From the IMG/VR virus record IMGVR_UViG_3300007171_000004, positions 236,537-300,536 of that record: a stretch of DNA of 64,000 bases. One strand, given 5' to 3'. The notes under the pieces are model-generated. The model was given only the letters and a program-made list of their open reading frames with translations. It was not told the DNA's origin and ran no database searches. Shown in pieces: positions 14,475-42,564 of the stretch. The position numbers and the translations under genes were made by a program. Each line of letters starts with the position of its first letter. Position 1 is the first letter of the stretch. This DNA is from a virus. Its lineage: Duplodnaviria; Caudoviricetes.

Positions 14475-15443
14475 ATGCCAAAGTTTGTGGATGATTTTGT
14501 TTCCGAAAGATTAAAAGATAAATCGTTCTATCCTGAGCTAAGTGAAAAAGAACGCAAGTCTATTGCATTCGCAATAGCATATAAAACATTAAATGAAAAA
14601 AAGCAAAAGAAAAATAAAAAGAAAAGCTTTTTTATTGGTGTTAATACAAGATACTCCGAACTCTTAAGATTATGTCGTCATTTAGATCATAAAGGTCAAT
14701 ATCGTACTGCTGATAAAATTGTAGAGGCTTTAAACCGTGGAGAATTCTGGATTGAGGATGATGGCTCCACTATATATGCAGATGGTGATGTTGGTGATTT
14801 GAATCATGCAATGGTAGCTGAACAAGAAATGATATCTAGGTTGGGTATTTATTTCGAAGATGAAATCTACTCTATCGAAAATGCTAGAGAATTGTTTTAT
14901 CAATCTATTAATGACGAAGGTGCTTATGGCCCTGATGGTATAGAAGATTATATTCAAGATCTTAAATCTGATTATGGAGATGATTGGGTTGATGAAGCTT
15001 CATTTGATCATTTTATTGTGTGGAATTCTACAAAACAAGCCCATAATCATCCTGCAATGTTAATAGAGAGCCAAAAAACTTTAGAAGGATTTAAAGATCC
15101 TGTAACTTTTGCAATTGAAAACTATGGATGGATTAGAGCTGAGATTAATAGAAATTATGCAGCATTTCAAACTAAAAATTTGAACAAGATGAATTTTGAT
15201 AAAATCTTAGCATGTCTTCTTGGAGATTATCCTGAAGAGTCTAATATACAGCCAGATTATAAAATTTCATTAGAAGTACAATCTCCAGTGGTTACATCTT
15301 TAAAATTTAATTATGATGAATTTAATTGGGATCATGTATGGGAAGAATTTAAAAGCTCTATTGGATTAAAAGAGCCTGTTTCTGAACCTAATTTAGCTAC
15401 TCCAAATATGCCTGAGTATTATCAAGGAAGAGAAGGCGATTAA
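14475..15443 (+). CDS. Putative virion-associated protein with internal leader-like helix and C-terminal GRxGD tag
   Basis: LLRLCRHLDHKGQYRTADKI; ends PEYYQGREGD; start moved to ATG 14475. Confidence 0.65.
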   Translation: MPKFVDDFVSERLKDKSFYPELSEKERKSIAFAIAYKTLNEKKQKKNKKKSFFIGVNTRYSELLRLCRHLDHKGQYRTADKIVEALNRGEFWIEDDGSTIYADGDVGDLNHAMVAEQEMISRLGIYFEDEIYSIENARELFYQSINDEGAYGPDGIEDYIQDLKSDYGDDWVDEASFDHFIVWNSTKQAHNHPAMLIESQKTLEGFKDPVTFAIENYGWIRAEINRNYAAFQTKNLNKMNFDKILACLLGDYPEESNIQPDYKISLEVQSPVVTSLKFNYDEFNWDHVWEEFKSSIGLKEPVSEPNLATPNMPEYYQGREGD

Positions 15444-16912
15444 TGACTAATTCCTTAGAACTATTAAAACTTGCGGATTCATTAGATCGTCAAGGCTTTT
15501 ATAGATTAGCACAAGAAGCCGAAGAATCAGCACAAGAACAAGCAACATCTCAACAAGAATTACAACAAAATAATATTAATTTTTATGAAATGACTGGAAA
15601 TACAGCTGAGTTATACAGTGCATATAATTATTTAAGACAACTTATTGGGCTTGGTCTTAATTCTAGATATTTTCAACAACTTATAACAACTTATAAATTA
15701 AATAATATTGATCAGATGATTGGTGTTTTTGCTAGATTAGGGAATACAAAAGCTGCTGATCTCTTAAAATCAATAAGTAATAATAAATTTTTAGCAGCTA
15801 GACAAAACAAATTATTTACTTATTTGAAAACATTTGAACCAGGAGCGCTTTTTACAGCTGATGAATTGAAAATTCTTCAGAATGCTACAAAATATAATGC
15901 TCCTGCAATTGGGTCTGGTTTAAATACTATTGAAAGATTTAAAAATCTTTCTGGTATTTCACAAGAAGTTATTAACGCAAATCCAACTAAATTCAGAGAT
16001 GTTTTAAGATTTATTGGAAATGGCCAAATCGAAGAAGCAGCAAATATTTTAAAAAGCATCGAAGGTTTAAATTCAAGTCAAGTGGATGCAATCTTATTTA
16101 ATTCAAAAGCTATTCAAAGTGAAATAAAAGCTGCTGAAAATGTTTTAAAATTTGATCAAGTAGCCCTTCAAAAGGGTAATTCTGTATTCACAGCTTTAAG
16201 AGCTATGGCAGCAGAAATTCCCGTCATTGGTAAAGTAATTCAAGTTCTAGAATGGGGTATGTCAAAAGGACTTCCTATTCTTGGTATTATTGCTGGAGCT
16301 GTAGAAGTGGTTGCATATTCAAACCAACTTAAAAGTGCTCCAGAAGAAGAAAAAGCAGATATTAGAATGGACATTGCACAGGGAGTAATTAATATAATTG
16401 GTAATATTTTAATGCTTGTCCCAAATCCAATAGCACAATCAGCAGGTGGCATAATTCTTGGTTTAAATTTAGCTGCAGATGTAGTACAAGGTAAATCAAA
16501 AGATTGGATGGCACAAGCTGAAGGTTTCGATAATGCAGAGCAGATGAAACAAACAAAGCAAATTGCCGAACAAGATCTTTCTGTTGTTTCAAGCAATCCT
16601 GAAGTAACAAAAGCAATGGATTATCTAATCAAAAAAAATTGGGTGTATTTTGAATCCCCAGCTAGATATAAAAATGAAATTTCTCAAAAGTTAATGCCAA
16701 ACAATGCTCTTGCAGATGTTGGTGGACTTTATGGTAGTGATAGAAATGCAAACTTTTGGAAGTGGTCTGGAAATACAAATTCTCCTGAATATTTAGAATT
16801 TGTTCAATCTCTGACTCAGTTGAAAAAGAAACTCTTTGATAGTTTTAGGCAACCTAGACAAATGACTCAAAGAACTTCATGTAGAGCTAAAATTAAGCTA
16901 AAATATGCTTAA
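15443..16912 (+). CDS. Putative ejected/internal protein with membrane-like helices
   Basis: Starts LLKLADSLDRQGFYRLA; Gly/Ala/Ile-rich helices around aa 270-345. Confidence 0.65.
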   Translation: MTNSLELLKLADSLDRQGFYRLAQEAEESAQEQATSQQELQQNNINFYEMTGNTAELYSAYNYLRQLIGLGLNSRYFQQLITTYKLNNIDQMIGVFARLGNTKAADLLKSISNNKFLAARQNKLFTYLKTFEPGALFTADELKILQNATKYNAPAIGSGLNTIERFKNLSGISQEVINANPTKFRDVLRFIGNGQIEEAANILKSIEGLNSSQVDAILFNSKAIQSEIKAAENVLKFDQVALQKGNSVFTALRAMAAEIPVIGKVIQVLEWGMSKGLPILGIIAGAVEVVAYSNQLKSAPEEEKADIRMDIAQGVINIIGNILMLVPNPIAQSAGGIILGLNLAADVVQGKSKDWMAQAEGFDNAEQMKQTKQIAEQDLSVVSSNPEVTKAMDYLIKKNWVYFESPARYKNEISQKLMPNNALADVGGLYGSDRNANFWKWSGNTNSPEYLEFVQSLTQLKKKLFDSFRQPRQMTQRTSCRAKIKLKYA

Positions 16913-16949
16913 AATTGTATAAATAAAAATAAAAAAAGGAATTGATATT

Positions 16950-17201
16950 ATGGACAGAACATTTGTAATTTTTGATGTAACAGAAGTTGATAAGGTTGAC
17001 TTCACCCAAGTACTTGAAACATCTGCAGATACTTTGAGAAAGAGTGTTGATGGAACTAAGACTTTCGTTAAGTGGGAAAGTGCAGAACCTACATTCTTAG
17101 CAGATCTTGAAACAAAGAGTGATCTTTATTCTTATGAAGAAATTCTTGCAATTCTTCAAACTCCAGAATGGACTGCACCAATGGATATGCCTACTCCTTA
17201 G
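16950..17201 (+). CDS. Small conserved aquatic-phage protein
   Basis: RKSVDGTKTFVKW..YSYEEILAIL..EW pattern; RBS aaggaa. Confidence 0.75.
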   Translation: MDRTFVIFDVTEVDKVDFTQVLETSADTLRKSVDGTKTFVKWESAEPTFLADLETKSDLYSYEEILAILQTPEWTAPMDMPTP

Positions 17202-17379
17202 TCTTTTTCTTTCCTAAGGTTTTTAAATAAGCCTCAAGATTCTGACATATTTCTTGTTGAGATAATTCAGTTTCTTGAGGCTTTGGTTTATAATTTATTA
17301 AAAAACCAATTAATATTCCACAAAAGAAAAAGAATATTAGGATTTTAAATTGCGAGATAATATTTCCAGTTTTCATCAA
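17191..17379 (-). CDS. Small membrane protein
   Basis: Single hydrophobic segment. Confidence 0.5.
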   Translation of the reverse strand: MMKTGNIISQFKILIFFFFCGILIGFLINYKPKPQETELSQQEICQNLEAYLKTLGKKKTKE

Positions 17380-17851: not shown

Positions 17852-17884
17852 GTTTTATTCTACCATCTATTATGATCATCTACA

Positions 17885-17920
17885 AAAAAATTACCCCAGC
17901 TTTTTTGCCGGGGTAATTTT
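17885..17920 (-). terminator. dnaK terminator
   Basis: aaaattacccc..ggggtaatttt hairpin with T-run on minus strand. Confidence 0.75.
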
Positions 17921-17934
17921 CTTTCCGATGATTT

Positions 17935-19755
<1,821 letters not shown>

Positions 19756-19926
19756 TTACCTCTCATTTAAAATATATTGTAAATTATACAAAGTTCCGAA
19801 AAATCATGAACTTTCTTTACAGATTTTAAGCAACCTAATTATACCACATTAGGCCAAAAAAGGAAATCTGAACCGAAACTTTATAACATCATAAGTAAGA
19901 AAAAAGTTTCTAAGGATTTTTTTAAT

Positions 19927-21252
19927 ATGAGAGAAGTTTTTGCTAGTATCAATTATGTAATCAACAAACTTGAAGAAAAGAATTTATTCAAGATTGCACA
20001 AGAAGGACATGATATCTTTGCAGCCGTTTATAGATTTGTTGGACAAGATGGCGAATTAGTAAGACCTGATGATGATAAATCTGAGCAGTATTATGAGTCT
20101 GCAGTCCCTAGTAATATGTTTGAAAATGATCTATATAGCCCTATGGATAAAAATAAGCAAAGAAAGTGGCGTGTAAAGAGTGAAGTTCCTAGTGAATACG
20201 GAACAGCACCAGCATCTCCTGCATCTCCAAACGCAACAGAAACTCCAAGCGCAGAAACATTTACTCCAGAAGCTCCAAGTGCAGGGCCATCAGTAGCTCC
20301 AGAAAGTGCATTGGTTACAATTACTGCACCTTCTTATAATGGTGGATCTGCAGGGACATCTTCTGAATCATCTTCTGACAATAGCGAAATCCGGGATCTC
20401 CAACATCATGAGTATTTTGATCCTCAAGAGGGAATTCCTATGATTGGAGAAAGATCCGAAGAAAGTAATTTTGGAACAAGTTCTTACGAGCCAACAAGTA
20501 CTGGATTATTTGGTGAAAGCTCAAGTCCAAAAATGTTAGAAGAGCGTAGTATTTTTGATCGTGAAGAGAATGATGAAAATTATACAAACGAAGAAAAAAT
20601 TGCCGAATTAGTATTTAAAAGATTGAAAGAAAAGAATTATAAAATTCTTTCAAATCCCACAGTAATTGAAATGGCAAAAGATCCTAACTCAGGGTTAAAA
20701 GATCAATTAGCACACAATGGTTATTATTTAATTATTCCCGAAGGTGATGTAATCAATCTTGGTGTTTCAACAGATAGAAATACATATTTAAATAAAAAGA
20801 ATGTCCTTCATAAAGCCAGGGGTAGATCTTCTGCATCTGCAAAAGAAGTTCTTTCTATGACCAATACATTCATTACAAATCTTGAGAATTATGGTTTAAA
20901 GAGAGAAGCTGAAGCTATGCATGATGTATTTGTAAAAATTGCCAATGCATATGATCTTGTTAATAGACCTGGCGTTTCTGTTCAAGCAAAGAAGTGGATT
21001 CAAGATAATGTAGCAAATATTGATGCTATGACAAATTTGCAACTTGTTAATATGATGGCAAATCTTCCATTAAATGTGCAAACAGAACTTAAGCAGATTA
21101 TCACTAATTATAAGAATACACAAGGTTATAAGCAAAACAAGCCTATGGGATATCAACAACCTAATCAGCAAATGTATCAACAGGGATATCAACAAGGTTA
21201 TCAACAACAGAACATGTATCAAAATCAAGGCGGTATGGTTAGACCGCAATAA
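19927..21252 (+). CDS. Low-complexity putative internal virion protein
   Basis: Two leader-like helices, Ser/Pro/Glu-rich middle, GYQQ-repeat C-terminus. Confidence 0.7.
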   Translation: MREVFASINYVINKLEEKNLFKIAQEGHDIFAAVYRFVGQDGELVRPDDDKSEQYYESAVPSNMFENDLYSPMDKNKQRKWRVKSEVPSEYGTAPASPASPNATETPSAETFTPEAPSAGPSVAPESALVTITAPSYNGGSAGTSSESSSDNSEIRDLQHHEYFDPQEGIPMIGERSEESNFGTSSYEPTSTGLFGESSSPKMLEERSIFDREENDENYTNEEKIAELVFKRLKEKNYKILSNPTVIEMAKDPNSGLKDQLAHNGYYLIIPEGDVINLGVSTDRNTYLNKKNVLHKARGRSSASAKEVLSMTNTFITNLENYGLKREAEAMHDVFVKIANAYDLVNRPGVSVQAKKWIQDNVANIDAMTNLQLVNMMANLPLNVQTELKQIITNYKNTQGYKQNKPMGYQQPNQQMYQQGYQQGYQQQNMYQNQGGMVRPQ

Positions 21253-21253
21253 C

Positions 21254-21284
21254 AAAAAAGGGGAGATTCATTCTCCCCTTTTTT
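21254..21284. terminator. Bidirectional intrinsic terminator
   Basis: aaaaaaggggag-attcatt-ctcccctttttt. Confidence 0.8.
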
Positions 21285-22611
21285 ATAATCCATAACGGGA
21301 TTTTGTTAAGTTGTAATAAGCTAGAATTTCTGATGATGATAAAGCTCGGTTATAAATTCTTAATTGCGATATGTTTCCTGCAAAAGTTTCTGAAATGTAA
21401 CTATTACCGCCAACAAAAACATTATTTGTTGTGACTGGATTCGAATTTAAACTTGAAAGATTTTCAGTTGTAGAAGAATTATTTAGACTAAATGTTATTA
21501 CTGGATTTGAAATTGTACCAGATACACTTATAGCTGCAAAATTCCATGTATTATTTGTTATAGAACCCAAATTTTTATTTTGATAACTTCCAGCAGATAA
21601 ACTAGTATAATAAGTTACTATATTATTATCAACTCTAAATAGAGAAATCAAATATCCTCCACCAGTACTAGAATAATTTGCATATAGTGTTGAATATTGT
21701 TTTGTTGAAGTTTGATAAAACCAACAAATTATAGTAACATTTATTTGAAGAGTTCTTAAATATGTATTGTTACCTAGACTTATATAATCATTTGTTCCAT
21801 CAAAAACCCATGTTCCGCCGTTGCTTGAACTAAAAGATACACCGTTTGTTAAAGCTCCATTATTATTATAAATTGAAAGATCATTTGCTAAAGTCGAAGA
21901 GGGCTCACTAAAACTATAAGGATTACCAGCATCTAGAACTAGTACAGCAGAATCGTTAGAGAATGGGTAGCTATAAGTTACTTGTTTAAAATGAAGAAGA
22001 TTTGTGGAAGATATAAATTTCTCTACAACGCCAACAATTAAAATTTCTTGAGCAATGGAATTAACATTAACTTTAACCAATTTTCCAGCATTGACACCAG
22101 AACCGAAAGTGAGTAAATCTCCAGAATTAAAATCTATTTGTGTAGTGTAATCTAAACCATAATCACCATGCAAAACTCTAACAAACTGATCTGTAATGAA
22201 AATATTGTTAGGTTGATTATAAACAGCCAATCCTCTACGTGAAATAACCATGTTTTCTGATGGATTATAGGGCTTATTCAAAGATTCATTAAGATTATCA
22301 TTCAAAGCTCTTTTTGTTGTTAAAACTTCATTATTTTCAGTGCGTATAAAACTGTAAGAGCTATCAATATAACTTGAACCAATAACATCTGGAACTATTA
22401 TTGTGTTTGCAGCAGAAGAATGATCAGATGTAGCAAAACCTAAGAACTTTCCAATTTTTTGAGATAATGTTTTTTGGAATATTAAAGAATTATCAGCTTT
22501 AACCACTCTTCCATTATCATCTCTCATAAGTGCCATTCCAGCTTTAAAATCAACATCAACAAAGATATCAACATTTTCTACTGCATTTGAAGTTACTGTA
22601 AAGATTGCCAT
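21283..22611 (-). CDS. Decoration/fibre-like protein with C-terminal LamG (ConA-like) domain, paralog 5
   Basis: Shared ~210-aa N-domain; FDGTNDY..QLRIYNRALS..SRYGL. Confidence 0.8.
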   Translation of the reverse strand: MAIFTVTSNAVENVDIFVDVDFKAGMALMRDDNGRVVKADNSLIFQKTLSQKIGKFLGFATSDHSSAANTIIVPDVIGSSYIDSSYSFIRTENNEVLTTKRALNDNLNESLNKPYNPSENMVISRRGLAVYNQPNNIFITDQFVRVLHGDYGLDYTTQIDFNSGDLLTFGSGVNAGKLVKVNVNSIAQEILIVGVVEKFISSTNLLHFKQVTYSYPFSNDSAVLVLDAGNPYSFSEPSSTLANDLSIYNNNGALTNGVSFSSSNGGTWVFDGTNDYISLGNNTYLRTLQINVTIICWFYQTSTKQYSTLYANYSSTGGGYLISLFRVDNNIVTYYTSLSAGSYQNKNLGSITNNTWNFAAISVSGTISNPVITFSLNNSSTTENLSSLNSNPVTTNNVFVGGNSYISETFAGNISQLRIYNRALSSSEILAYYNLTKSRYGL

Positions 22612-23909
22612 TATAAACCATACCTAGATTTTGTTAAGTTGTAATATGCCGAAATTTGATCGAGTGTAAGAGCCGTAAAGTAAATTCTCATTTCAGATAA
22701 ATACATTCGAGCGTAAGAATGCGGGCTTGTTTTAACACTTCTAGCACCAATTCCAAGATCTTCATTGTTTGAACCCATATCCCCAGTAGTTGCAACTATA
22801 TTTGTCAAAGAGTTATTTATATAAGCCTTTTGATTTGTTTTATCATATGTTACAGTAATTAGTTTCCAAGCTGAAGAATCCATAGGCGCAATACTTCTCC
22901 ATTGCCAAGCTGGAAGATAAGCATAATCGAATGAATTACTATAATATCCAGTTTCATATATATTTTCTTTATTTAGGATAATATTTCCACCTAAAGAATC
23001 AGTAGGAAATCCATCAATTTTCACCCATGTCATTGTAGTAAGTTGTCTTGTTCCTGGATTTAAGCTTGGGCTGTCTAAGACTCTTATGTAATCATTTGTT
23101 CCATCAAAATAAAAAGAACCGCCTCCAAAACTACTATAAGATACTCCATTATATAAAACTCCATTGTTATTATTTGGGGTTAAATCATATACAGTGTTTC
23201 CAGAAATGTATGAATAAGGATTTGCAGCATCTATGGCAAATTGTAAGTTATTAGATTGAAATGTTACTAAATATGGGGCCTGTCTAAAATGAAGAAGATT
23301 AGAAGTTGAGATAAATTTTTCTACAATGCCAACAATTAAAACATCTGGGCCAATAGAATTCACATTTATCTTTACAAGTTTTCCAGCATTTATTCCAGAT
23401 CCAAAAGTTAGCAAATCTCCAGCATTAAAATCTATTTGTGCTGTTGAGTCTACTCCAAAATCTCCATGTAATACTCTTGAAAATTGATCCGTTATGAAGA
23501 TGTTGTTTGGTTGATTGTATACTGCTAATCCTCTTCTAGATGTTGTTAATGTTTCTGAAGGATTATAGATTTTGATGTTAGTTTCATCTTGGTTATCATT
23601 TAAGGCTCTTTTTGCTAATATTACTTCATTATTTTCAGTTCTAATATAATTGTAAGAATTGTCAATATAACTAGATCCAATTATATCTGGAACAATGATT
23701 GTATTTGAAGCTGAGGAATGATCACTGGAAGCAAAACCCAAGAACTTGCCGATTTTTTGTTCATTTGTTTTATAGAGTAGTAAACTATTATCAGCAGGAA
23801 CAGCTCTACCGTTATCATCTCTCATTAACGCCATACCAGACTTGAAAGATGATGAATAGAATATATCTACATTTAATACTTCGTTAGATGTTACGGTGAA
23901 AATAGCCAT
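22611..23909 (-). CDS. LamG-domain decoration/fibre-like protein, paralog 4
   Basis: As above; YFDGTNDY..MRIYFTALT. Confidence 0.8.
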   Translation of the reverse strand: MAIFTVTSNEVLNVDIFYSSSFKSGMALMRDDNGRAVPADNSLLLYKTNEQKIGKFLGFASSDHSSASNTIIVPDIIGSSYIDNSYNYIRTENNEVILAKRALNDNQDETNIKIYNPSETLTTSRRGLAVYNQPNNIFITDQFSRVLHGDFGVDSTAQIDFNAGDLLTFGSGINAGKLVKINVNSIGPDVLIVGIVEKFISTSNLLHFRQAPYLVTFQSNNLQFAIDAANPYSYISGNTVYDLTPNNNNGVLYNGVSYSSFGGGSFYFDGTNDYIRVLDSPSLNPGTRQLTTMTWVKIDGFPTDSLGGNIILNKENIYETGYYSNSFDYAYLPAWQWRSIAPMDSSAWKLITVTYDKTNQKAYINNSLTNIVATTGDMGSNNEDLGIGARSVKTSPHSYARMYLSEMRIYFTALTLDQISAYYNLTKSRYGL

Positions 23910-25198
23910 TATAAACCATATCGGGATTTGTTAAGGTTGTATTGATTTAAAACTTCTTGAGATGATAATACTTTAGTATAAATTTTTAAGTATCCAAAAG
24001 AAGATCTTGTTCTTTCATTATTAAATTGATTCGTAGCAGATGCTAAAGCGAACGCTGTCAGTGTATTATTTACTAATGATGAAGAATAAATGGAGACTCC
24101 ATTTACAAAAATTTGATGTGCTGCAGCATTTTTTACCAATGTAATATGCGTATATTGTCCCAATAATAAAGTGTATGATGTATTGATCCAACCTGATCCT
24201 TGCACATATAAATGTATATTATTTAAAGGATAAACTCCACCTGTCCCAAGAGCTATGATTGCTGAATTTCCGTCTCCATCAAATATCCTGTTAAGTGCTA
24301 GTTGCCCAGTAAGTTGATATACATTTACAAACATTTCTAAAGTATAATTAGAAATAGAAAATCCAGAAGAAGAACTAGAGTCATCAGCACCATCAAAAAC
24401 AATTTCACCATTATAAGCGCTTGTATATGAGACTCCATTCAAAAGAGTCATATTGTAGTTATTTGAAGCTAAATTATACCAAGTACTCCCTGTTTTTGGA
24501 TATGATAAGAGATTAGCAGCATCATAGTTTAATAAAGTAAAATTTCCAAAGCTTAAGCTAAAACTTACTTGTCTAAAATGTAATAGATTTGTTGATGATA
24601 CATATTTTTCAACAATACCCACAATCAATAATTCAGGGCCAAAAGAATTAACATTTACCTTAACAAGTTTCCCGGCATTAACTCCACCACCAAAAGTAAG
24701 TAAATCACCAGGGTTTAATGCAACAGTGTCTAATCCATCAAGGCCATAATCTCCATGTAAAACAGGCTTAAATTGATCTGTTATGAAGATATTATTAGGT
24801 TGGTTATATACTGCAAGGCCACGTCTCGAAATTATATTTTTATCAGATGGATTATATAAATTTGGAATTCCCTCATTTAAATTATCAACTAGCCCTCTCT
24901 TAGAAATTACAACCTCATTATTTTCAGTTCTTATGTAGTTGTAAGAATTATCAATATAACTTGATCCAATGACATCTGGAATAATTATAGTGTTTGAATA
25001 AGCTGAATGATCGCTTGTTGCAAAACCTAAGAATTTACCAACTTTTTGTTCGAGAGTTTTAAATACTAACAATTGACTATCTGCTGGAACTCCTCTACCA
25101 TTATCATCCCTCATTAAAGCCATACCAGCCTTAAATGATGTAGAAATCATGATGTCTACATTTTCAACAGCATTAGAAGTTACAGTAAATATAGCCAT
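23909..25198 (-). CDS. LamG-domain decoration/fibre-like protein, paralog 3
   Basis: As above; VFDGADD..LKIYTKVLS. Confidence 0.8.
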   Translation of the reverse strand: MAIFTVTSNAVENVDIMISTSFKAGMALMRDDNGRGVPADSQLLVFKTLEQKVGKFLGFATSDHSAYSNTIIIPDVIGSSYIDNSYNYIRTENNEVVISKRGLVDNLNEGIPNLYNPSDKNIISRRGLAVYNQPNNIFITDQFKPVLHGDYGLDGLDTVALNPGDLLTFGGGVNAGKLVKVNVNSFGPELLIVGIVEKYVSSTNLLHFRQVSFSLSFGNFTLLNYDAANLLSYPKTGSTWYNLASNNYNMTLLNGVSYTSAYNGEIVFDGADDSSSSSGFSISNYTLEMFVNVYQLTGQLALNRIFDGDGNSAIIALGTGGVYPLNNIHLYVQGSGWINTSYTLLLGQYTHITLVKNAAAHQIFVNGVSIYSSSLVNNTLTAFALASATNQFNNERTRSSFGYLKIYTKVLSSQEVLNQYNLNKSRYGL

Positions 25199-31585: not shown

Positions 31586-31606
31586 TTTTTAACTTGATAT
31601 TTAATT

Positions 31607-31635: not shown

Positions 31636-31640
31636 ATTTG

Positions 31641-33341: not shown

Positions 33342-33348
33342 AAACATT

Positions 33349-33708
33349 ATGAAAAGATATGCTGACAAATTTCAAGATCAATTGCAAAATATGATCAATA
33401 TTCTCGACCAATTCAATTCTCTTTATTCTGAAACAAGTAGATATGGAAATAAAGATGTTTCTGCATTAGATGCTCAAGCAGAAATGTTACAATCTGAATT
33501 TTCAAGATTAATGAGATTATATATTGAAAGCAAATCTGGAGAAGTTACAAGAAGATATTTAGATAGAGTAGATAGAGCTGATACACCAGGGCAATTAGAT
33601 AGAATTAAAAGAAAAATGCAAACTGAAAAATTCCCTGTAGATCAAGAAGCTGTATTAAATGCCATATCTGAAAAACTTAAATCAAGAGGATATGATGATG
33701 TGGTATAA
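33349..33708 (+). CDS. Hypothetical protein
   Basis: 119-aa helical ORF. Confidence 0.65.
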   Translation: MKRYADKFQDQLQNMINILDQFNSLYSETSRYGNKDVSALDAQAEMLQSEFSRLMRLYIESKSGEVTRRYLDRVDRADTPGQLDRIKRKMQTEKFPVDQEAVLNAISEKLKSRGYDDVV

Positions 33709-34261
33709 ACTTGCTGCTATAAGAGTCAATGACCAAGAAGTTCCAGAAGAAGATTTCCTTAAAAAATTTATCAATGTTGCTACTAATGTTAATAAACAAC
33801 ATTATTGGATAGTTAATGGCGAAAAGTATGCTCCACCAGAAAACTATGGACATAACTACACTGCCATGATGCTTAAATTACAACATGGTGTCTATCCAAA
33901 TGATCCAGATTTTAATGAAACACCTATTGAATTTGTTGGAAGAGGAATTGGGAGCATGGCTAATGGCGGAACAATAAGAGTTAGCCAGATGTTAGATGAT
34001 GCTGATCTTTCTATATATGGACCTGTCAGCGATAATACTCTTGAAAACATACTAAAATTTATATCCCCAGACTGTATAGGTCAATGGGAAATTCTTAATG
34101 TTGCTGGAAACCCAAATGGAAGAGGATTTGATTCTCTTAAACAAACAATCCAGAATCTTACATTAGGACTTAATCAAAACACAAAAGAAGAAATTGACAC
34201 TGCTCCTATCAAAAGAGTTGACAACACTCCATCATTTTATAAAGGCAGATCTGGAGACTAA
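33698..34261 (+). CDS. MWY-leader protein with C-terminal GRxGD tag
   Basis: Starts MWYKLAA; ends PSFYKGRSGD. Confidence 0.7.
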   Translation: MWYKLAAIRVNDQEVPEEDFLKKFINVATNVNKQHYWIVNGEKYAPPENYGHNYTAMMLKLQHGVYPNDPDFNETPIEFVGRGIGSMANGGTIRVSQMLDDADLSIYGPVSDNTLENILKFISPDCIGQWEILNVAGNPNGRGFDSLKQTIQNLTLGLNQNTKEEIDTAPIKRVDNTPSFYKGRSGD

Positions 34262-34285
34262 TTTTAGCCTCAAAATCATCTAATT

Positions 34286-34654
34286 TCACTCAGTTACACA
34301 ATAAGATATACAAACAGTTGGCTCCCAGAAAGATTGCAAATATCGTACCTTTACAGAATTAACATATCTAGTAGTGTCATTAGGAACAATTTTTGCTCTT
34401 ACTAATAAATCTACAATAGGTTTTATCAAATTGTCAGAGTCGTGTTTCATCTTCCAATTCATATCTGCCATAACTAAAATTTCTACATCAACTGGAAATG
34501 AATCAGCTGGCAACATAGATTCAACAATTATTGGTAAATTCTTATCTATCCATTCTCTATATTTTTTACTTTTAATTAATTTGCCATAAGCTACTGGAGT
34601 GTACATCTTATTTGCTGAAAATGGATGTGTAATAGTACAATACTTCTTAAGCAT
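34286..34654 (-). CDS. Second RusA-like resolvase
   Basis: PFSANKMY, KHDSDNLIKPIVDLLVRAKIVPNDT. Confidence 0.75.
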   Translation of the reverse strand: MLKKYCTITHPFSANKMYTPVAYGKLIKSKKYREWIDKNLPIIVESMLPADSFPVDVEILVMADMNWKMKHDSDNLIKPIVDLLVRAKIVPNDTTRYVNSVKVRYLQSFWEPTVCISYCVTE

Positions 34655-34702
34655 ATATTTCTTTTACAGGGATATAGGAGTAAAATCGGTAAAATTAAAA
34701 TC

Positions 34703-36388
34703 ATGTGGTATCGAATATCTAATCAATTACAATTACCTGAAACTGATGTCCCTCAAAATCCTGTAGAACCAGAAGTCCAGGAAGAAGAGCAAGAGCAACC
34801 TCAGCTTTTAGAAACAGAAAAACCAACGCAAAGCTTATTTTTTAGTGAATGGGCTAAGGATCATTATGTTCCAACTCAACCTGTTTATCATGGGACGACT
34901 CACGACTTTGACGAATTTCAAATTATCAACACTGGAGATAATTCTTTAGGTGATGGTTTCTATTTCACTAGTGAAGACAAAGAAGCTGAAAAATTCTATA
35001 CAGGAAAAGGCGGAGATCAACTGCGACAAATTGATCGAATCGCCACAGATTTTGCTGATTCATATTATGGCAACGATGATGAACTATTTGAATTGTTTGG
35101 TGATAAATATCCAGAATGTTTCCAAGATGGCGAAGTTAAAGATGCTTATGAATTAGGTGAAAAAATTGGATCTGATCGAATTCTTGGAGGAAAACCTAAA
35201 GTAATTCCAGCTCATATTAGAATGAAAAATCCATTTGTCTTAACTCAAATGAATCCTAACTTTCCTTACAGCCCAACTATGTTTTATGATGATTTCCAAG
35301 AAGAAGAAATTCCAGAAGCTGATGGGGATGATGGATATGACCCTGAAAATAATGAATCGCCAGAAAAATTAATTATTGAAAAAGATGGAGAGAAAAAATA
35401 TTCTTTCAAAACATTAATTCACAAACTCTATGATATTTTATTAGAATATTATGAAGATTATAATGCTTATGAATTTATTAACCAAGTAATATTAGATAAT
35501 GCAAACCCTGGTGCAGATATCAACGCAATGCATATTTTCCAATCTATAACAAATCAAACTGAATATTTCAAACATCAATATGAAGATGATTACCATAGCG
35601 AAATAGTAAAAAAACTTATGGAATCTTTAGGTTTTGACAGCATTATCCAAGACCCAAAGGCATTCTGGCCATCTAATGAATATGAACCAGGAACACAACA
35701 TTATTTCTTATGGAAGCCTGAGAACATTAAACACGCTAGAGAAAATATTGAATTTAATCCTGATAGCAGAAAAATTTATTCAGCCTATATGTTTAATCCA
35801 GAAGGTCAAGGTGTTTTAGATTTAGGCATCAAGCTAAAATATGACCCATCTAATTATGAAGCTAGAATTGAGAAAGAAAGAAATGACAAGAATTCTCACA
35901 TGCTAGATATTGGAGCTTATATTAAAGGTACAAATATCAAACTAGGACAGATTGATTTATTTTGTGATAAATCAGTTCCACCTGAAGAAAGATATGTAGA
36001 TGTTGAATTAGTTTTAGTCTATGATAATAATAAAAGTTTTAAACAACAACTAAGACAACAATATAATCCACTTGAAATAGATGAATTTAGTGGATCAAGA
36101 GTTAAATGGGGTATTGGAGAATTTCTTTATAACGCTGCAAGAAAATTGATCCAAGAAAAAATGCCTGAAGTGAAATATATTGCTGGTAATATTCATAGTA
36201 AAGAAGCATTCAAAGCAAGAAATAAAGCGTTCGGTGATCCTTTAGAAATAAAAGATGTTAATACAGACACTAATGTTTCTCAATTAGATGCTCAAAAACA
36301 AATTCCATATATGGTTTTTGATGAATATACAGAACAACCAGAATTTCGAACAGATGACGCATTTTGGGTAAAACATAATGTGGTATAA
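34703..36388 (+). CDS. MWY-leader protein: ADP-ribosyltransferase-like domain plus C-terminal GNAT-like domain
   Basis: VYHGTTHDFDEF, LGDGFYFT, PAHIRMKNPF, LGFDSII, YFLWKPENIK; KWGIGEFLY. Confidence 0.7.
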   Translation: MWYRISNQLQLPETDVPQNPVEPEVQEEEQEQPQLLETEKPTQSLFFSEWAKDHYVPTQPVYHGTTHDFDEFQIINTGDNSLGDGFYFTSEDKEAEKFYTGKGGDQLRQIDRIATDFADSYYGNDDELFELFGDKYPECFQDGEVKDAYELGEKIGSDRILGGKPKVIPAHIRMKNPFVLTQMNPNFPYSPTMFYDDFQEEEIPEADGDDGYDPENNESPEKLIIEKDGEKKYSFKTLIHKLYDILLEYYEDYNAYEFINQVILDNANPGADINAMHIFQSITNQTEYFKHQYEDDYHSEIVKKLMESLGFDSIIQDPKAFWPSNEYEPGTQHYFLWKPENIKHARENIEFNPDSRKIYSAYMFNPEGQGVLDLGIKLKYDPSNYEARIEKERNDKNSHMLDIGAYIKGTNIKLGQIDLFCDKSVPPEERYVDVELVLVYDNNKSFKQQLRQQYNPLEIDEFSGSRVKWGIGEFLYNAARKLIQEKMPEVKYIAGNIHSKEAFKARNKAFGDPLEIKDVNTDTNVSQLDAQKQIPYMVFDEYTEQPEFRTDDAFWVKHNVV

Positions 36389-37280
36389 ATTCGCTGCTCA
36401 AGGAATAATTCAACACCAAGTATCTGACCAAGAAATAGATGCGCTTGTAGATAGATCTCTTATTGACACTGGATCAACATATTTAATCAATCAATTCTCC
36501 CTAAGAGATGGATTGCTGGATTTATTCCCAAGCCTTAATAATGTCAAATTTCAAAGCCTACCTGATGAATTTGGACTCTATAATATCACAACTCAAGAAT
36601 TAATATTAGAAGATGAAATTGCAAAAGAAGATTTAGGCCTTTTTAAAACCAATTTACATCACGAACTTCAACATGTAGCAGATCCAAATCTTAAAAGAAA
36701 TCATGAATATATTAATAAAATAGCTGATGATGCAACTTTAGCTCTTATTATTGATATTCCTGAAGTTGATGAAGATACAGTTTTCCCAACATATGAAGAG
36801 ACTGTAAACAAAATTTTCCTCAAATACATGAATAGAAAACCAACAGAATATGACACTCCATTCTTAGACAAAATTAAAAATAAATATTCAGAAGAACAAT
36901 TCAATGATGTTATTAATAGAATTAAATCTGGAGATCATCCCTATTATAATTCTCCTATTGAAAAAGCAGCAAATTTAAAAGATTTCACAAGAATTTTCTC
37001 TGTAAGCAATCTATTAGGAATAAAAGATTTAATTTCTAAAAAACCATCATATACAATGGAAAAACATATCAAGGTTATTAGCGATATCTTAAGATCTCCA
37101 TCCTCAGATAAATTTAAAGCTGTACTTGGATTGTTAGAAATAAAATATCCAGAAGCTGAACAAACTATTGACCCTCTGTTTATCTTAAATGCCAACACAA
37201 GCCCAAAATATGAAAAGCAATTTAAAAAACAATTGGGAAATATTATCAACGAATTACAAGAATTATTAAAAGAGAACTAA
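36378..37280 (+). CDS. MWY-leader putative zinc metallopeptidase
   Basis: MWYKFAAQ; LHHELQHVAD, later Y..SPIEK. Confidence 0.65.
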   Translation: MWYKFAAQGIIQHQVSDQEIDALVDRSLIDTGSTYLINQFSLRDGLLDLFPSLNNVKFQSLPDEFGLYNITTQELILEDEIAKEDLGLFKTNLHHELQHVADPNLKRNHEYINKIADDATLALIIDIPEVDEDTVFPTYEETVNKIFLKYMNRKPTEYDTPFLDKIKNKYSEEQFNDVINRIKSGDHPYYNSPIEKAANLKDFTRIFSVSNLLGIKDLISKKPSYTMEKHIKVISDILRSPSSDKFKAVLGLLEIKYPEAEQTIDPLFILNANTSPKYEKQFKKQLGNIINELQELLKEN

Positions 37281-37281
37281 C

Positions 37282-37791
37282 ATGTGGTACAAAAAAGCAA
37301 TTCTTCTTACAGATATTGAAATCGAAATGGAACTTCTTCATAATGCAAAAACCACTGAAGATATACATAAGAATTACAGAAATCTATCTAAAAGACACCA
37401 CCCTGATGTAAATCCTGATCCAGACTCTACTAAAAATTTTCAAAACATTCAAAATATTTATGATGAAGTGAAAGATCAACCACTCTACTCAACTGAAGAT
37501 TTTACAAGCAGAGAAATGACAGAAGATGATGTTAGAGATAATATAGAACTTCAAGATAATTTTCTAAATACAGATGAAGAAGCACTTAAAATGGGCATAC
37601 TTCAATCTGTAGAAACATACTTCAATAATAATGTTCCAGATAATTATGACACACCTGATTTTGAAATGTATGAATCTTTAACCGAACAAATTTATAATCA
37701 AGTTAAAGATATTCAGCCAACACCATATGAAACAATTGCAAATCTAATTAATAATATGGCTGGAAACTACATTAGAGAAAATTATAGCTAA
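37282..37791 (+). CDS. MWY-leader J-domain (DnaJ-like) protein
   Basis: MWYKKA; YRNLSKRHHPDVN..FQNIQNIYDEV. Confidence 0.8.
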   Translation: MWYKKAILLTDIEIEMELLHNAKTTEDIHKNYRNLSKRHHPDVNPDPDSTKNFQNIQNIYDEVKDQPLYSTEDFTSREMTEDDVRDNIELQDNFLNTDEEALKMGILQSVETYFNNNVPDNYDTPDFEMYESLTEQIYNQVKDIQPTPYETIANLINNMAGNYIRENYS

Positions 37792-38009
37792 TTCTTCTTC
37801 AAACTCTTAGCATATTTTAACATACTATCCACCTGAGCTTTTGATGGAATTTCAGGACTGTCTCTTCTATACATGTCATAAATTGTTTTCCGAAGATCTT
37901 TTGTTTTAGGATTTTTAAACAATATTGCAGCAGGTTCGTGGCATCCAATACAACGTTCCTTATATTCAATCTTAGGATCTATTAACATTAAAAATAATAT
38001 TAACTCCAC
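37788..38009 (-). CDS. Putative small c-type cytochrome
   Basis: Hydrophobic N-terminus, CIGCH heme motif, distal Met. Confidence 0.55.
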   Translation of the reverse strand: MELILFLMLIDPKIEYKERCIGCHEPAAILFKNPKTKDLRKTIYDMYRRDSPEIPSKAQVDSMLKYAKSLKKN

Positions 38010-38605
38010 TGAACATCACACTCTTCTCTAATACAAAAATCTGCCAAAGCTTCTAACTGTAATAACTTACCCTCAATATAATTTACATCAATTCCGCCAC
38101 CGTATGTTCTGGGGCCGTCTTCATCAGGTCTAGTGAATTCTTCTAATATCCTAGAACCTTTAACACTTTCAATTTTCCTCAGTAATGCTAAAGGCGAAAT
38201 AGAACCCACATCATCACTATTATCTATATTCAACAACTGGAAAATTGTGCGGGCATTCATATTTGACAATTGAACAGTATAAGAATCAGAAGGCATATGG
38301 GCAATACAACTTAAACTCATTACAACTTTACCATTTTTAACAATATTAAATTCTGGAAAAGCACCACCCTCATCCATTACCAGATTACCAAACTGCCTGT
38401 ACTCAGAAATCCAAAATGATAAAGGCTGATAACCATTCTTCTGTACATATTTATAAAAATAATAAGCCATATCATCATCATATTTATCAGCTAAGATTTT
38501 TCTTAAAGAACCATCAGGATCTTCATAAATACGTTCATGACAAAATTCATACAGGGTGTCATCATTAACTTCTTTGCGCAAATTAGCACTAAATTCAATA
38601 CTCAT
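38000..38605 (-). CDS. Hypothetical protein
   Basis: 201-aa ORF. Confidence 0.7.
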   Translation of the reverse strand: MSIEFSANLRKEVNDDTLYEFCHERIYEDPDGSLRKILADKYDDDMAYYFYKYVQKNGYQPLSFWISEYRQFGNLVMDEGGAFPEFNIVKNGKVVMSLSCIAHMPSDSYTVQLSNMNARTIFQLLNIDNSDDVGSISPLALLRKIESVKGSRILEEFTRPDEDGPRTYGGGIDVNYIEGKLLQLEALADFCIREECDVQWS

Positions 38606-38703
38606 AATACTTTTTTTATAAAATTAATGTTAAAAATACCTTCAAGAGGATTTTTTAAAGATATTCAGTAAAAATATGTTAATACCTCAAAAAGTAAAAC
38701 ATT

Positions 38704-39381
38704 ATGAATAAAAGACAAATCCTAGCATCATTAAATAATATAGCTTCCACACTTGATAAATTAAATTTATTTCAAGAAGCTGATTCAATCACTCTAGTAA
38801 TGAATAGATTGGCATCATCTGAATCAGATTATGATCAAAGGAGAAAGTATCAAGAACTTTTTGATCAAAAATCTTTGTCAGAATTATTAAATGACTTAAA
38901 AAAAGTAATAGATGACATTAATATCAAATTAGAAAATGATGCAAAGACAAATTTAGAAAATAAATTCAAAAAATTTAAATTAAATAATCCTGAAGCTACA
39001 TATGAAGATTTTCAAAAAGCAAGTGTATTTAATAGACCAAGAATAGAATATAAAAATCCTATTGATGAACTTGTAGCAAAATACGATATAAATGATAACT
39101 CAAGCGTAAATCAATTTAATCAATTTGAAAGCGAATTAATGAAAGAAATTGGTAGAGGCTTTTATAGCTTTCCTTTTGAAGTTGATGGCCTGAGTTTTGA
39201 TGGTACTAAATATAATTTAACTTTTCTATTTGACATGATTAGAAAAAAATTAAGAAATAATCCTGAAGTATTACCATTCAATAATGTACCTCTTCCGCCA
39301 ACTGAAGGAGAAGATTCAGAAGAAGATGTTTCGAATTTATTAGAATGGGCTAGAAATCCTTATGAAAAGAGAACATTATGA
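38704..39381 (+). CDS. MNKRQ-leader protein
   Basis: MNKRQILASLNNIASTLDKLNLFQEADSIT. Confidence 0.75.
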   Translation: MNKRQILASLNNIASTLDKLNLFQEADSITLVMNRLASSESDYDQRRKYQELFDQKSLSELLNDLKKVIDDINIKLENDAKTNLENKFKKFKLNNPEATYEDFQKASVFNRPRIEYKNPIDELVAKYDINDNSSVNQFNQFESELMKEIGRGFYSFPFEVDGLSFDGTKYNLTFLFDMIRKKLRNNPEVLPFNNVPLPPTEGEDSEEDVSNLLEWARNPYEKRTL

Positions 39382-39899
39382 ATAAAAGACAAATTATTGC
39401 TTCATTAAATAATATTGCTAATGAACTGGATAATAATTATTTATATAAAGAAGCTAACACTCTCACTAATATTATGATTAAAGTGGCAGATGAATTTAAT
39501 ATCGAACCAAATTCTCAACCTGTAAACAATTCGCCAGAACAATCAAATAATATTCAACAAAATCAACCTCAGCCTTTTATTAAATTTGATCTTCTTACAA
39601 CAAAAGGAAATAGTCAATCCTTTACTAAAACAGAGGGATTTACGATTGGAAGACAGGGCGATATAGTAACTCCACCCGAAATCAATACAGTTTCAAGACA
39701 ACATTGTCACATAACAAGAAATAGATATGGGAAATGGGCAGTATATGACCTTGGTAGTAAAGCTGGCACAAAACTTAATAGAAATCAATTATCACCAAGG
39801 GTAGGGCAAGAATTAGAAATTCATGATGGTATATTTCTAGATCCTTGGGTTGTAATTGAAATCATGGATATGTATCCTCTTCCAAGTGAAAAAGAATAA
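39378..39899 (+). CDS. MNKRQ-leader FHA-domain protein
   Basis: FTIGR, VSRQH, DLGSKAGTKLN. Confidence 0.85.
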   Translation: MNKRQIIASLNNIANELDNNYLYKEANTLTNIMIKVADEFNIEPNSQPVNNSPEQSNNIQQNQPQPFIKFDLLTTKGNSQSFTKTEGFTIGRQGDIVTPPEINTVSRQHCHITRNRYGKWAVYDLGSKAGTKLNRNQLSPRVGQELEIHDGIFLDPWVVIEIMDMYPLPSEKE

Positions 39900-39915
39900 T
39901 AAAGAAAGAAAGCAA

Positions 39916-40476
39916 ATGAATAAAAGACAAATTTTAGCATCCCTTAATAAGATTGCAAATACATTAGATAATACTGGAATGTATGTTGAAGCTAATTCTG
40001 TAACTAAAGTAATGACAAGATTAGCAGATGAATTTAATATCGAAACCCCAGCTGATGAAAGAGAAAATAAGAGACAAAGAATTATCACTGAAGCTTTAAA
40101 TACTCAAGTCAGAAAAGATAATTTGCCTAAAACAATGCAATATTATATACCTGGTGGACCTTTACTTACTATGAAAGAAATTGCAGATGCTATAATTGAG
40201 AAGGCAGATAGAGATGCAGATGCTCTTATTGCTATGCTTAATCGAGGAAAAATGGGTACTGAAGTAATTGTGCAAAATTCTTTAAAAATGTTGAGTAGTT
40301 TCAAAGAGCAATTATTAGATGTATTTAAAATGTATGGTATTCCTTCTGCTCCAGTTTTTTATTATATTGACCAAGCACATAAACCAATTATTGCAAAGTT
40401 AAATCAAAAAATCAAAGAATACAACGAATACCATGATGAAGATTTGTTTAAAGATGAAGAAAATAATCCTACCTAA
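39916..40476 (+). CDS. MNKRQ-leader protein
   Basis: MNKRQILASLNKIANTLDNTGMYVEANSVT; start moved to 39916. Confidence 0.75.
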   Translation: MNKRQILASLNKIANTLDNTGMYVEANSVTKVMTRLADEFNIETPADERENKRQRIITEALNTQVRKDNLPKTMQYYIPGGPLLTMKEIADAIIEKADRDADALIAMLNRGKMGTEVIVQNSLKMLSSFKEQLLDVFKMYGIPSAPVFYYIDQAHKPIIAKLNQKIKEYNEYHDEDLFKDEENNPT

Positions 40477-40708
40477 GATTATTCATAAAAGCATCCAATA
40501 ATCTACAAATCATAATAAAACTAAACATAATATTAGAAAGATATAACCAAGCTAATTTATAACTCTTGCGATTCTCAATATGATATCGCCAGAAATAATA
40601 ACCACAAATCCATAAACAAATTAAATACAATAATAATGATAAACCAAACTCAGATGTATAAGCAAAAAAAGAAAAAGCTAACATCTGAAAAATAAATATT
40701 AAAGACAT
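40469..40708 (-). CDS. Small membrane protein
   Basis: Three hydrophobic segments. Confidence 0.5.
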   Translation of the reverse strand: MSLIFIFQMLAFSFFAYTSEFGLSLLLYLICLWICGYYFWRYHIENRKSYKLAWLYLSNIMFSFIMICRLLDAFMNNLR

Positions 40709-40770
40709 ACAAATATTATAAAAGAAGAAAGAGAGATCTAAAGATCTCTCTTTTTATTTATTAACCTAAA

Positions 40771-41787
40771 TTACACATGAGGAAACATTAACAATAACTT
40801 GCTTAAATTAAATGCTGCTCTATTTATTTTCATTTGGATCATTGTGGAATTATTTAAAAATTCCATCATACTATCATAATATTCTTTACTAATTCTTTTA
40901 CCTTTAAGAGCTGGAATAAGATCATGAGGATCAGTGTAAAGATTATCCACAATGTGTACTATATCAATATAAGAAAACTTACCACCAGGAAGTGATTTGA
41001 ATTTACTTTTCTTTTCATCCCTTAAGAAAAATTTTAAAGCATTTTCTCTAACTTCTTCATGACTTGCATCTGGATGGTCTTTAATATATTTCTCTACAAA
41101 ATTCACTACAATTTTATTCTTTGGATTTTTCTTTATCAAAAATTCTATATGAGGATTTACAACTTTTGTTTTTAATAAGTTTACACCCGACTTATGCTCA
41201 TCTTCTCTTGATTCTTCTAAAAAATACTCTACAGCAGATACACCCATGGATAAAGAAGGAATATCAATATGACTACGAAGATCTATATGCATTAAAAAAT
41301 TCAACATTTTAGAAATTGAATTAAATACTGCAAATAAATGAGTAGCTACACCATGCATACCACCAGAAGCTTTAAAATGCTCTTTAAATATTTTGACACG
41401 TAAAGACGAATCCTCAATACCCTCAAGCTGCTTACATACTTCCAATAAATTATATATGTCAGTAATTATACCCATTAAACTAAATTGCTTCTTGATTAAC
41501 AATTGAAGAGGCTTTTGTTGCTCAAAAATTTTAACAACATTAGATAAAATAGGAACTAATTCATGAGAAACTTTCAATATCGAATTAGAGAGATTTTTAA
41601 ATTTTTCAGAATCAGGATCTAAACCACCAAAATGATAAAGTTCATCTAATTTTTCTTTGCTGCCTTCTAAACCGGATAATAGTTTTTCAGGAACAATTTT
41701 AATTCTACCATCCCTTGACTCAACATCAGTCTCAGTAGAATTAAATCCAGATAAGTTTGATAAATTTATTGCAATTCTATACCACAT
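40771..41787 (-). CDS. MWY-leader hypothetical protein
   Basis: Starts MWYRIA; terminator hairpin at 40730-40755. Confidence 0.7.
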   Translation of the reverse strand: MWYRIAINLSNLSGFNSTETDVESRDGRIKIVPEKLLSGLEGSKEKLDELYHFGGLDPDSEKFKNLSNSILKVSHELVPILSNVVKIFEQQKPLQLLIKKQFSLMGIITDIYNLLEVCKQLEGIEDSSLRVKIFKEHFKASGGMHGVATHLFAVFNSISKMLNFLMHIDLRSHIDIPSLSMGVSAVEYFLEESREDEHKSGVNLLKTKVVNPHIEFLIKKNPKNKIVVNFVEKYIKDHPDASHEEVRENALKFFLRDEKKSKFKSLPGGKFSYIDIVHIVDNLYTDPHDLIPALKGKRISKEYYDSMMEFLNNSTMIQMKINRAAFNLSKLLLMFPHV

Positions 41788-41895
41788 AAATACATAATTC
41801 TATATATTAAATATCAATCCCTAAATAATAAGATAAAAGGACTTAAATGCTTATAAAAGAATTAATATAATAAGATCTACATAGGGATTAACAAT

Positions 41896-42564
41896 ATGAA
41901 TAAAAAACAAATATTAGCTTCTTTGAATAATATAGCTAATAGACTTGATCAAAAATCTGAATATGAACAGGCTGATAAGATTACTGGTTTAATGGTGAAA
42001 ATATCCCAAATGCCCATCAAACAAGCTGGATTCATGGACGTTCTATCAACTATCGGAAGTGGACTATATGAAGCTGGCGGAAGTGCTTTACAAGGATTTC
42101 AGGGAATTGGCTCAGCATTAGTATCAAACGCAGGAGGAATAGGAGGGGTATTAGCAGGGGGAATAACAGGAGGACTAGGAGGAGCAGCAGGAACAGGAGC
42201 AGTTGTAAACAATTACCTAAATTCCAAAAACTATCAAAATCACCTTAAAGACAAAGCATACAGAGAAAAAGATAAAATGCGAGTATATGTTGAAGCTGAA
42301 ACTCAAAAAATTATTACAGAAATAACAAACCTTATCAAAAATAACAAAAACATAACTCCAGAAGCTGCAAAACAACAAGCCATAAATAAAGCTCAATCTC
42401 ATCCATATTTTCAACAAATTAACGCCTACTGCACAACTTATAATAAAATGAGCTTTACTGATATTATTGCCACAAAATTCGATTCCTATGTTGCTAAATT
42501 ATTACCACAGAAAAATATAGCAGTGAAACCTAATGTTTGGGTCCCACCTGTCGAAAAATATTAA
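41896..42564 (+). CDS. MNKKQ-leader protein with glycine-zipper segment
   Basis: MNKKQILASLNNIANRLD; GGIGGVLAGGITGGLGGAAGTG. Confidence 0.75.
   Translation: MNKKQILASLNNIANRLDQKSEYEQADKITGLMVKISQMPIKQAGFMDVLSTIGSGLYEAGGSALQGFQGIGSALVSNAGGIGGVLAGGITGGLGGAAGTGAVVNNYLNSKNYQNHLKDKAYREKDKMRVYVEAETQKIITEITNLIKNNKNITPEAAKQQAINKAQSHPYFQQINAYCTTYNKMSFTDIIATKFDSYVAKLLPQKNIAVKPNVWVPPVEKY

Follow-up and report, generated by a model that had tools for sequence, protein, structure and literature searches.

We describe a 37-residue N-terminal module that an uncultured giant phage, a distant relative of Bacillus phage G, carries in front of small and otherwise unrelated proteins. Four clear copies lie within the 64,000-nucleotide stretch of DNA that was analysed (the window), which corresponds to bases 46935-110934 of a 129-kb IMG/VR virus record. 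The module is predicted to fold as a single TPR-like helix-turn-helix hairpin, its conservation stops sharply at a [KR]-h-[AS] motif (h, a hydrophobic residue), a motif of the same kind is enriched in the head proteins of this phage group, and the proteins attached to the module turn over rapidly between relatives. In our view the module probably acts as a capsid-targeting propeptide that is cut off by the prohead protease, following the logic of the capsid-targeting sequence (CTS) of the internal proteins of phage T4. The record has a G+C content of 33% and an estimated completeness of 36% (CheckV), and it encodes a terminase, a replication module and a portal whose nearest relative is gp14 of Bacillus phage G (30% identity). 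Since the major capsid gene was not found in the 129-kb record, the head genes were studied in two near-complete relatives, G001 (316 kb) and G002 (358 kb), which were used whole. Their major capsid protein and phage G gp27 share 48-49% identity.

The leader occupies the first 37 residues in the translations of four genes, named here by their first position (38704, 39378, 39916 and 41896; table 1), and follows the pattern MNK[RK]QI[LI]ASLN[NK]IA..LD....[YF].[EQ]A..[ILV]T..M.[KR][LIV][AS], with 16 of 42 alignment columns invariant. A preliminary description of this DNA had claimed near-identical leaders on these four proteins and proposed a profile scan of the genome. The profile built from the four leaders, run on a six-frame translation of the 129-kb record, gave 81-88 bits on each copy (E 1e-24 to 1e-26) and a next best match of E 0.004, bearing out the claim. 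The same description held that the cargo behind the leader is unrelated, and this proved correct as well: the cargos show no cross-matches outside the leader and are of four types, an FHA domain in 39378 (Pfam PF00498, E 4e-11, with 43.6 bits where the cutoff is 20.7), a GxxxG protein rich in Gly, a protein that is all-helical and an acidic one. A fold search of the 39916 cargo against BFVD and the ESM Atlas gave no meaningful match, and PHROGs returned, for the seven certain or candidate carriers of the window, nothing but one weak tape-measure match to the Gly-rich part of 41896. Regarding the gene models, a TTG at 39856 was rejected as the start of the third gene, whose true start is the ATG at 39916, and a weak leader-like match of the six-frame scan at 30449-30520, in another frame of an open reading frame (ORF) of 1109 residues, was discarded as chance. 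At the DNA level the identity among the four copies is no more than 61-72%, each pair differs by 4-9 synonymous codons, some of them at conserved residues, and past codon 37 the identity between carriers drops to background. The conserved entity is therefore the protein, and not a recent DNA repeat.

The four-leader profile was also searched against 1.84 billion cluster representatives, where it matched at least 667 clusters (at 50% identity) with E<=1e-3, 304 of them with E<=1e-10. The module nearly always covers residues 1-40, and 205 of the 218 full-length leader matches, from 215 carrier proteins, start at residue 1. Carriers are small (median of 158 residues), and 189 of them fall into 60 cargo groups that are unrelated by BLAST and of very different lengths, the only Pfam families recognised among the cargos being FHA, Lcl_C and Zn-ribbons. 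The cargos are mostly acidic, with a median isoelectric point (pI) of 4.9, and the linker directly after the module is rich in Asp, Glu and Pro. An iterated profile, run with reversed-sequence decoys, gave 18 module proteins for G001 and 22 for G002 at a threshold of E<=2e-3, which no decoy reached. The module was not found in phage G or in the 485-kb record LR745208, and DNA and leader-protein searches of 50,697 phage records gave no match. Across the three genomes the carrier loci are syntenic, yet only the leaders match and the cargo is not conserved. Even where the flanking genes are 87-95% identical, as in one relative, the 39916 orthologue is the only one of the four carriers retained; 38704, 39378 and 41896 are absent, and a different carrier of 117 residues is present. 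A few proteins have two modules, the second being internal or near the C-terminus (database proteins P0091, P0111 and P0095; G001 28879-30405). Some of those in the database, with a second module that begins MNKRQ, give the impression of two neighbouring carrier genes run together, and others, in which the second module lacks a Met, are apparently genuine fusions.

The AlphaFold2 model of the 39916 protein, made with 13 homologues, has a mean predicted local distance difference test (pLDDT) score of 84.8 and shows a helix at residues 3-19, a turn, a second helix at residues 23-40 and a break at residues 41-44 before the cargo. In a profile-profile comparison (hhalign), the leaders aligned with TPR_10 repeats at 96.5% probability (E 1e-9, 27 columns, 41% identity), leader residues 5-31 lying on repeat positions 3-29, and the few multi-hit proteins of the leader profile are TPR_10/TPR_12 repeat proteins. 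From sequence and model we read the leader as one solitary TPR-like helix-turn-helix hairpin. It is similar in this respect to the kinesin-light-chain type repeats of TPR_10/TPR_12, and differs from them as a single unit with a protease-type motif added, and as a unit that stays below Pfam thresholds: TPR families were absent from the carriers at E<=0.1. A TPR_12 search of G000, G001 and G002 gave no match, the module being present as one unit per site with no tandem array, and hence no multi-TPR receptor is encoded by these genomes.

The leader has a sharp C-terminal boundary. Among 190 distinct leaders, position 35 is Lys or Arg in 185, position 36 is Leu, Ile or Val in 187 and position 37 is Ala or Ser in 178; beyond this point conservation collapses and an acidic, Pro-containing linker follows. 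Relatives also have shorter variants, in which the second helix has lost four residues and the K/R-h-A ending is kept. In addition, the module is found at extreme C-termini in the relatives, on three tandem paralogues of 900-1000 residues in G001, two in G002 and proteins of about 200 residues, and most of these copies lack the [KR]-h-[AS] ending, as scored by reading eight sequences. The retention of the ending in the short variants and its loss in most C-terminal copies indicate that the terminal motif can be separated from the core hairpin. The tandem paralogues (G001 34141-42563, L033/L034; G002 74637-80511, L051) have no Pfam or PHROG match, and their last 35 or so residues form the hairpin without the protease-type ending; those of G001 directly adjoin the leader-gene cluster.

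A protein of about 1,400 residues, encoded next to the portal, is the source of the protease. Its residues 86-241 match PHROG 18299 'head maturation protease' (3e-16), and it is 38% identical to phage G gp19, annotated as head maturation protease (PMC12484599). A Foldseek search with a model of the first 330 residues returned T4 gp21 at the top and then herpesvirus proteases only, with marginal scores (from E 1.4e-3) in a uniform list, and His126 and Ser177 are invariant across 18 homologues. The Pfam families Peptidase_S77 and S78 had no match in three relatives. Judged by sequence and predicted fold, the protein is the prohead (head-maturation) protease, built as a polyprotein around an assemblin-type domain. 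The protease is fused to an extension of about 1,100 residues (L001:2-3805, minus strand, G000 1-3805; G001 133072-137289), and the polyprotein as a whole has [KR]-h-A sites at about ten conserved positions, one of them an invariant [KR]-[LV]-A-Q that directly follows the protease domain. In phage G gp19 the motif flanks the protease domain on both sides. All three records that have the leader and span the gene (G000, G001 and G002) contain the extension, which is absent from phage G (protease ORF of 309 residues) and LR745208 (497 residues), both of which are module-free, although this co-occurrence rests on few, phylogenetically dependent genomes.

In order to define the distribution of the motif, [KR][TLIV]A[SQADEM] was counted in all proteins of the three genomes and compared with composition-preserving shuffles. 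The top scorers are the protease polyprotein, with 12, 11 and 9 sites in the three genomes (1.5-1.8 expected), the next protein, which is scaffold-like and has 533/562 residues (6 observed, 0.5-0.7 expected), and the portal (5 observed, 0.43 expected). This is an over-representation of 6-10 times at positionally conserved sites, and the reversed motif occurs only 0-2 times in the same three head proteins. Within proteins, the first 50 residues have the strict motif three times as often as later windows, and very short N-terminal peptides of head-module proteins end in it (MWYRIA↓Q and MEKSIKIA↓QFGG, the arrow marking the putative cut). Also in the head module, a conserved gene of 147 codons between terminase and portal starts with a short leader ending in K[IFL][AS]↓Q, as do its orthologues in G001 and G002. 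The preliminary description had taken the (K/R)x(A/S) end of the module for a putative cleavage site, a proposal well supported by this enrichment in head proteins and N-termini and by the point at which conservation stops; we infer that [KR]-h-[AS] is the site at which this phage's prohead protease would cut.

Other short N-terminal sequences were observed in the same genomes. A head-module protein starting M..[SN]I[KR][IT]A↓QFGG[IV]GGGG, followed by a Gly/Pro-rich stretch, is encoded at L001:13449-14423 (minus strand), G001 121917 and G002 56811. A second tag, MWY[KR].[A..], is found on the window genes 33659-34261, 34625-36388, 36378-37280, 37282-37791 and 40771-41787 (minus strand) and on L001:6317-6694 (minus strand). 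Its clearest version is the six-residue MWYRIA↓Q, with a [KR]-h-A↓Q ending, on a gene of 125 codons just upstream of the portal, and one tagged protein (34625) is an ART-PolyVal ADP-ribosyltransferase (Pfam, 1.6e-11).

In the mechanism that we favour, the 37-residue hairpin would dock freshly made payload proteins onto a component of the prohead core. The preliminary description had proposed the scaffold or the portal, which is conceivable by analogy with T4. Candidate partners are the extension of the protease and the adjoining 533-residue scaffold-like protein. After assembly, the head-maturation protease would cut at the [KR]-[LIV]-[AS] that closes the module, and the freed payload would remain inside the head and be ejected into the host along with the DNA. 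The payloads would be mostly acidic proteins of 100-300 residues, including an FHA domain and membrane-active Gly-zipper proteins. A more specific version, in which the solitary hairpin is a protease-removable label that docks on the 1,100-residue extension and loads hundreds of rapidly exchanged families of injected host-takeover and anti-defence cargo, is possible, and we put it forward tentatively.

The closest parallel is T4, in which ten N-terminal residues target internal proteins to the core and are removed by gp21, and in which the repertoire of internal proteins differs between relatives (PMC9026906). The CTS of IPI-III and Alt resembles the leader as an N-terminal tag on unrelated, non-essential, fast-turnover payloads that ends in the motif of the head protease, a putative one in the case of the leader (PMC9026906). 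Further likenesses are payload loci that vary between close relatives and an ADP-ribosyltransferase among neighbouring tagged proteins, here the one with the MWY tag. In contrast, the T4 tag is some 10 residues long, and gp21, a Peptidase_S77 enzyme, cuts it after Glu (L/I-x-E), whereas here a folded hairpin of 37 residues would be cut after Ala or Ser. The two have no evident sequence relation, and the leader boundary has no conserved Glu, as homology to the T4 CTS would demand. The propeptides of phiKZ, 201phi2-1 and SPN3US also belong to jumbo phage heads with processed proteins and a protease motif concentrated in head proteins (PMC10052503, PMC5694885). They differ in being heterogeneous, 20-254 residues long and cut at A-x-E, and no portable leader on dozens of proteins has been described for them. 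The maturation and release sites of herpesvirus assemblin have the form (V/L/I)-x-A↓S. The phage protease shares the assemblin/gp21 fold, and its putative sites share the Ala at P1 and often the Ser at P1', differing in a basic P3. The scaffolding protein of P22 has a C-terminal helix-turn-helix domain that binds coat protein, and SaPI1 CpmB mimics the 80alpha scaffold. Compared by description only, these resemble the module as small helical hairpins tethering a protein inside the procapsid, and the module is also C-terminal in some proteins of the relatives.

Several observations weigh against a capsid-targeting propeptide. Modules exist at internal and extreme C-terminal positions, where cleavage would make no sense, suggesting that the hairpin serves docking in general and is more than a propeptide, and two of the C-terminal copies retain a K-h-[AS]-Q ending that just 3-5 residues follow. 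The putative cut site belongs to the final turn of the predicted helix and not to an extended linker, and P1' is Asp or Glu in 62 of the 190 leaders, whereas the sites of the head proteins mostly have Ser, Ala or Gln. The motif has few residues and is open to mimicry by the diverged core Y-[KR]-L-A-D. The leader clusters are more than 100 kb away from the major capsid gene in both near-complete relatives, and the payloads are acidic, T4 internal proteins being basic. Moreover, the clade is uncultivated, and as phage G has no module, phage G proteomes cannot be used for the carriers. Some of these points would be met if the TPR-like hairpin served for docking or oligomerisation in the infected cell and stayed uncleaved, gathering effectors on a hub or co-assembling, with [KR]-h-A merely capping helix 2. 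The likeness to TPR_10 is in favour of such a role, a lone TPR hairpin needing a partner surface, as are the function of the module at N-terminal, internal and C-terminal positions, the location of the site within a predicted helix and the C-terminal copies whose cleavage would release just a few residues. However, it leaves unexplained the oriented enrichment of the motif in the protease, the scaffold-like protein, the portal and N-termini, as well as the loss of the ending in most C-terminal copies and its retention in leaders of variable length, and no receptor with several TPR units is encoded. We regard this alternative, the main rival, as unlikely.

The remaining explanations account for less of the data. 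Carriers do stand in tandem clusters, as expected of an ordinary paralogous family in which a duplicated gene keeps its N-terminal domain while the C-termini diverge fast, but the 60 unrelated cargo groups of diverse lengths, with a bona fide FHA domain among them, the abrupt drop in identity at codon 37 and the disordered acidic linker between leader and cargo make this improbable. We give slightly less credit still to a leader that acts as an adaptor bringing the phage's own Hsp70/DnaJ to the payloads so that these are folded or held. In favour of it, a complete Hsp70 is encoded in the window, a DnaJ domain is found in the orthologue of 37282-37791 and the leader is TPR-like; TPR co-chaperones, however, require a clamp of three repeats and EEVD on Hsp70, where the leader has one repeat, and the terminal motif and its enrichment in head proteins would be left unaccounted for. 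Docking through EEVD was rejected, the C-terminus of the phage Hsp70 being ..VVEESPQG. Finally, hypervariable loci and the A-rich start MNK could indicate conservation at the level of the nucleic acid, as a recombination cassette or a translation-initiation element. This is largely refuted by the low DNA identity, by the synonymous differences at conserved residues and by a protein profile that holds over hundreds of clusters, and is scarcely credible.

The regions upstream of the leader genes give a hint that these may be co-regulated with head genes. A promoter-like element precedes 41896 (table 1), and AGG-N19-TAAA, which is related to it, is found some 30 nt upstream of 38704. The two-box pattern AGG-N19-[GT]AA[AT] is present upstream of 10 of the 18 transcription units with a leader and of 28 of the other 312 (Fisher p 3e-6); it is a low-information pattern, and some matches lie 0-8 nt from the ATG and are possibly ribosome-binding sites. 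Other genes with this pattern upstream are the protease, the scaffold-like gene and several MWY-tagged genes. The strict SigH-type AGGA-N15-19-GAAT was discarded for lack of enrichment, with 10 occurrences in the window where 19 were expected, and leader genes were set apart from others only by the looser pattern above, confined to upstream regions.

The preliminary description had placed the leader on at least seven proteins, a number that holds firmly for the four carriers above. The other three, 14475, 15443 and 19927, are borderline by sequence (E about 0.01, the first reversed-sequence decoy being at E 0.077) and are probable or possible carriers. Among the diverged copies that it listed, the one at the start of 15443 has E 0.0076 and the internal one of 14475 E 0.022. 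The latter is independently supported, because residues 5-88 of the 14475 protein are homologous (E 3e-8) to a G001 protein of 85 residues whose C-terminus is a clear module (E 1.6e-11). Both copies in 19927 lose significance with the iterated profile: the N-terminal one has E 0.004-0.02 with the plain leader profile and 0.65 with the iterated profile, and the internal one E 0.013 and 3.9, respectively, and E 0.014 in a pairwise comparison. The two-module architecture of 19927-21252 is also found in two database proteins. At window 14475-14650 and G001 61465-61722 (L035), a conserved N-terminal domain of about 45 residues, 'FYP..S...K.SIA.AIA', stands in front of a poly-Lys run, behind which comes the module. 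KKKKK linkers are also present in other module proteins of the relatives, and may point to DNA-contacting internal proteins.

Table 1. Positions of the leader module, its diverged copies and the upstream element in the window (the arrow marks the putative cut).
Feature	Position	Strand	Remarks
Leader (37 codons) of the 225-residue carrier 38704-39381	38704..38814	+	ends NRLA↓SSE
Leader of the 173-residue carrier 39378-39899	39378..39488	+	ends IKVA↓DEF; cargo, N/Q/P-rich linker and then FHA domain
Leader of the 186-residue carrier 39916-40476	39916..40026	+	ends TRLA↓DEF; cargo all-helical
Leader of the 222-residue carrier 41896-42564	41896..42006	+	ends VKIS↓QMP; basic cargo with Gly-rich GxxxG hydrophobic segment
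Promoter-like element AGGA-N17-GAAT, upstream of 41896	41838..41862	+	
Short diverged module, N-terminus of the 489-residue protein 15443-16912	15443..15511	+	MTNSLELLKLADSLDRQGFYRLA↓QE; E 0.0076; cargo with Gly-rich hydrophobic segments
Internal diverged module of the protein 14475-15443	14652..14738	+	residues 64-92, counted from the GTG at 14463; E 0.022
Possible diverged module, N-terminus of the 441-residue low-complexity protein 19927-21252	19927..19998	+	..EEKNLFKIA↓QE; weak
Possible second, internal module of 19927-21252	20836..20943	+	residues 304-339, ..HDVFVKIA↓NAY; weak

Regarding the neighbouring genes, the Hsp70/DnaK of the window is full-length (17935-19752, minus strand; Pfam 7e-247). 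The MWY-tagged protein 37282-37791 (plus strand, 169 residues) has an orthologue in a close relative that is 95% identical and contains a DnaJ domain according to precomputed Pfam annotation. Together they look like a phage-borne chaperone pair, one partner of which is possibly virion-tagged. Five tandem paralogues of 429-442 residues are encoded at window 21283-27806 (minus strand). Their N-terminal 220 or so residues are homologous (30-39% identity) to a capsid decoration protein encoded beside the major capsid gene of the relatives, and their C-terminal half is a lectin-like Laminin_G_3 domain, so that the five could represent alternative decorations of the head, each with a lectin. Within the head module, the terminase and portal genes have between them a gene for a UDP-galactopyranose mutase (Pfam GLF, 9.5e-64; L001:12338-13432, minus strand). 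The window also encodes a protein with a prepilin-type N-methylation motif and DUF1559 (SBP_bac_10) at 31641-32609 (minus strand), 87% conserved in a close relative; we take this architecture to be typical of pseudopilins of Planctomycetota/Verrucomicrobiota, and it may hint at the host of this phage.

If the module is indeed a capsid-targeting propeptide, the packed and injected proteins of an abundant clade of uncultivated giant phages would become readable from sequence, with 18-22 per genome and hundreds of families overall. Payloads that are mostly without assigned function and turn over fast are the expected signature of host-takeover or anti-defence effectors, and the module would then provide a ready-made catalogue of injected effectors. 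It could also be used to load foreign proteins into large capsids, as a defined handle made of a folded unit of 37 residues and a cleavage site. For the evolution of these phages, it would mean an independent origin of CTS-type addressing, in which both the structure and the protease specificity are different.

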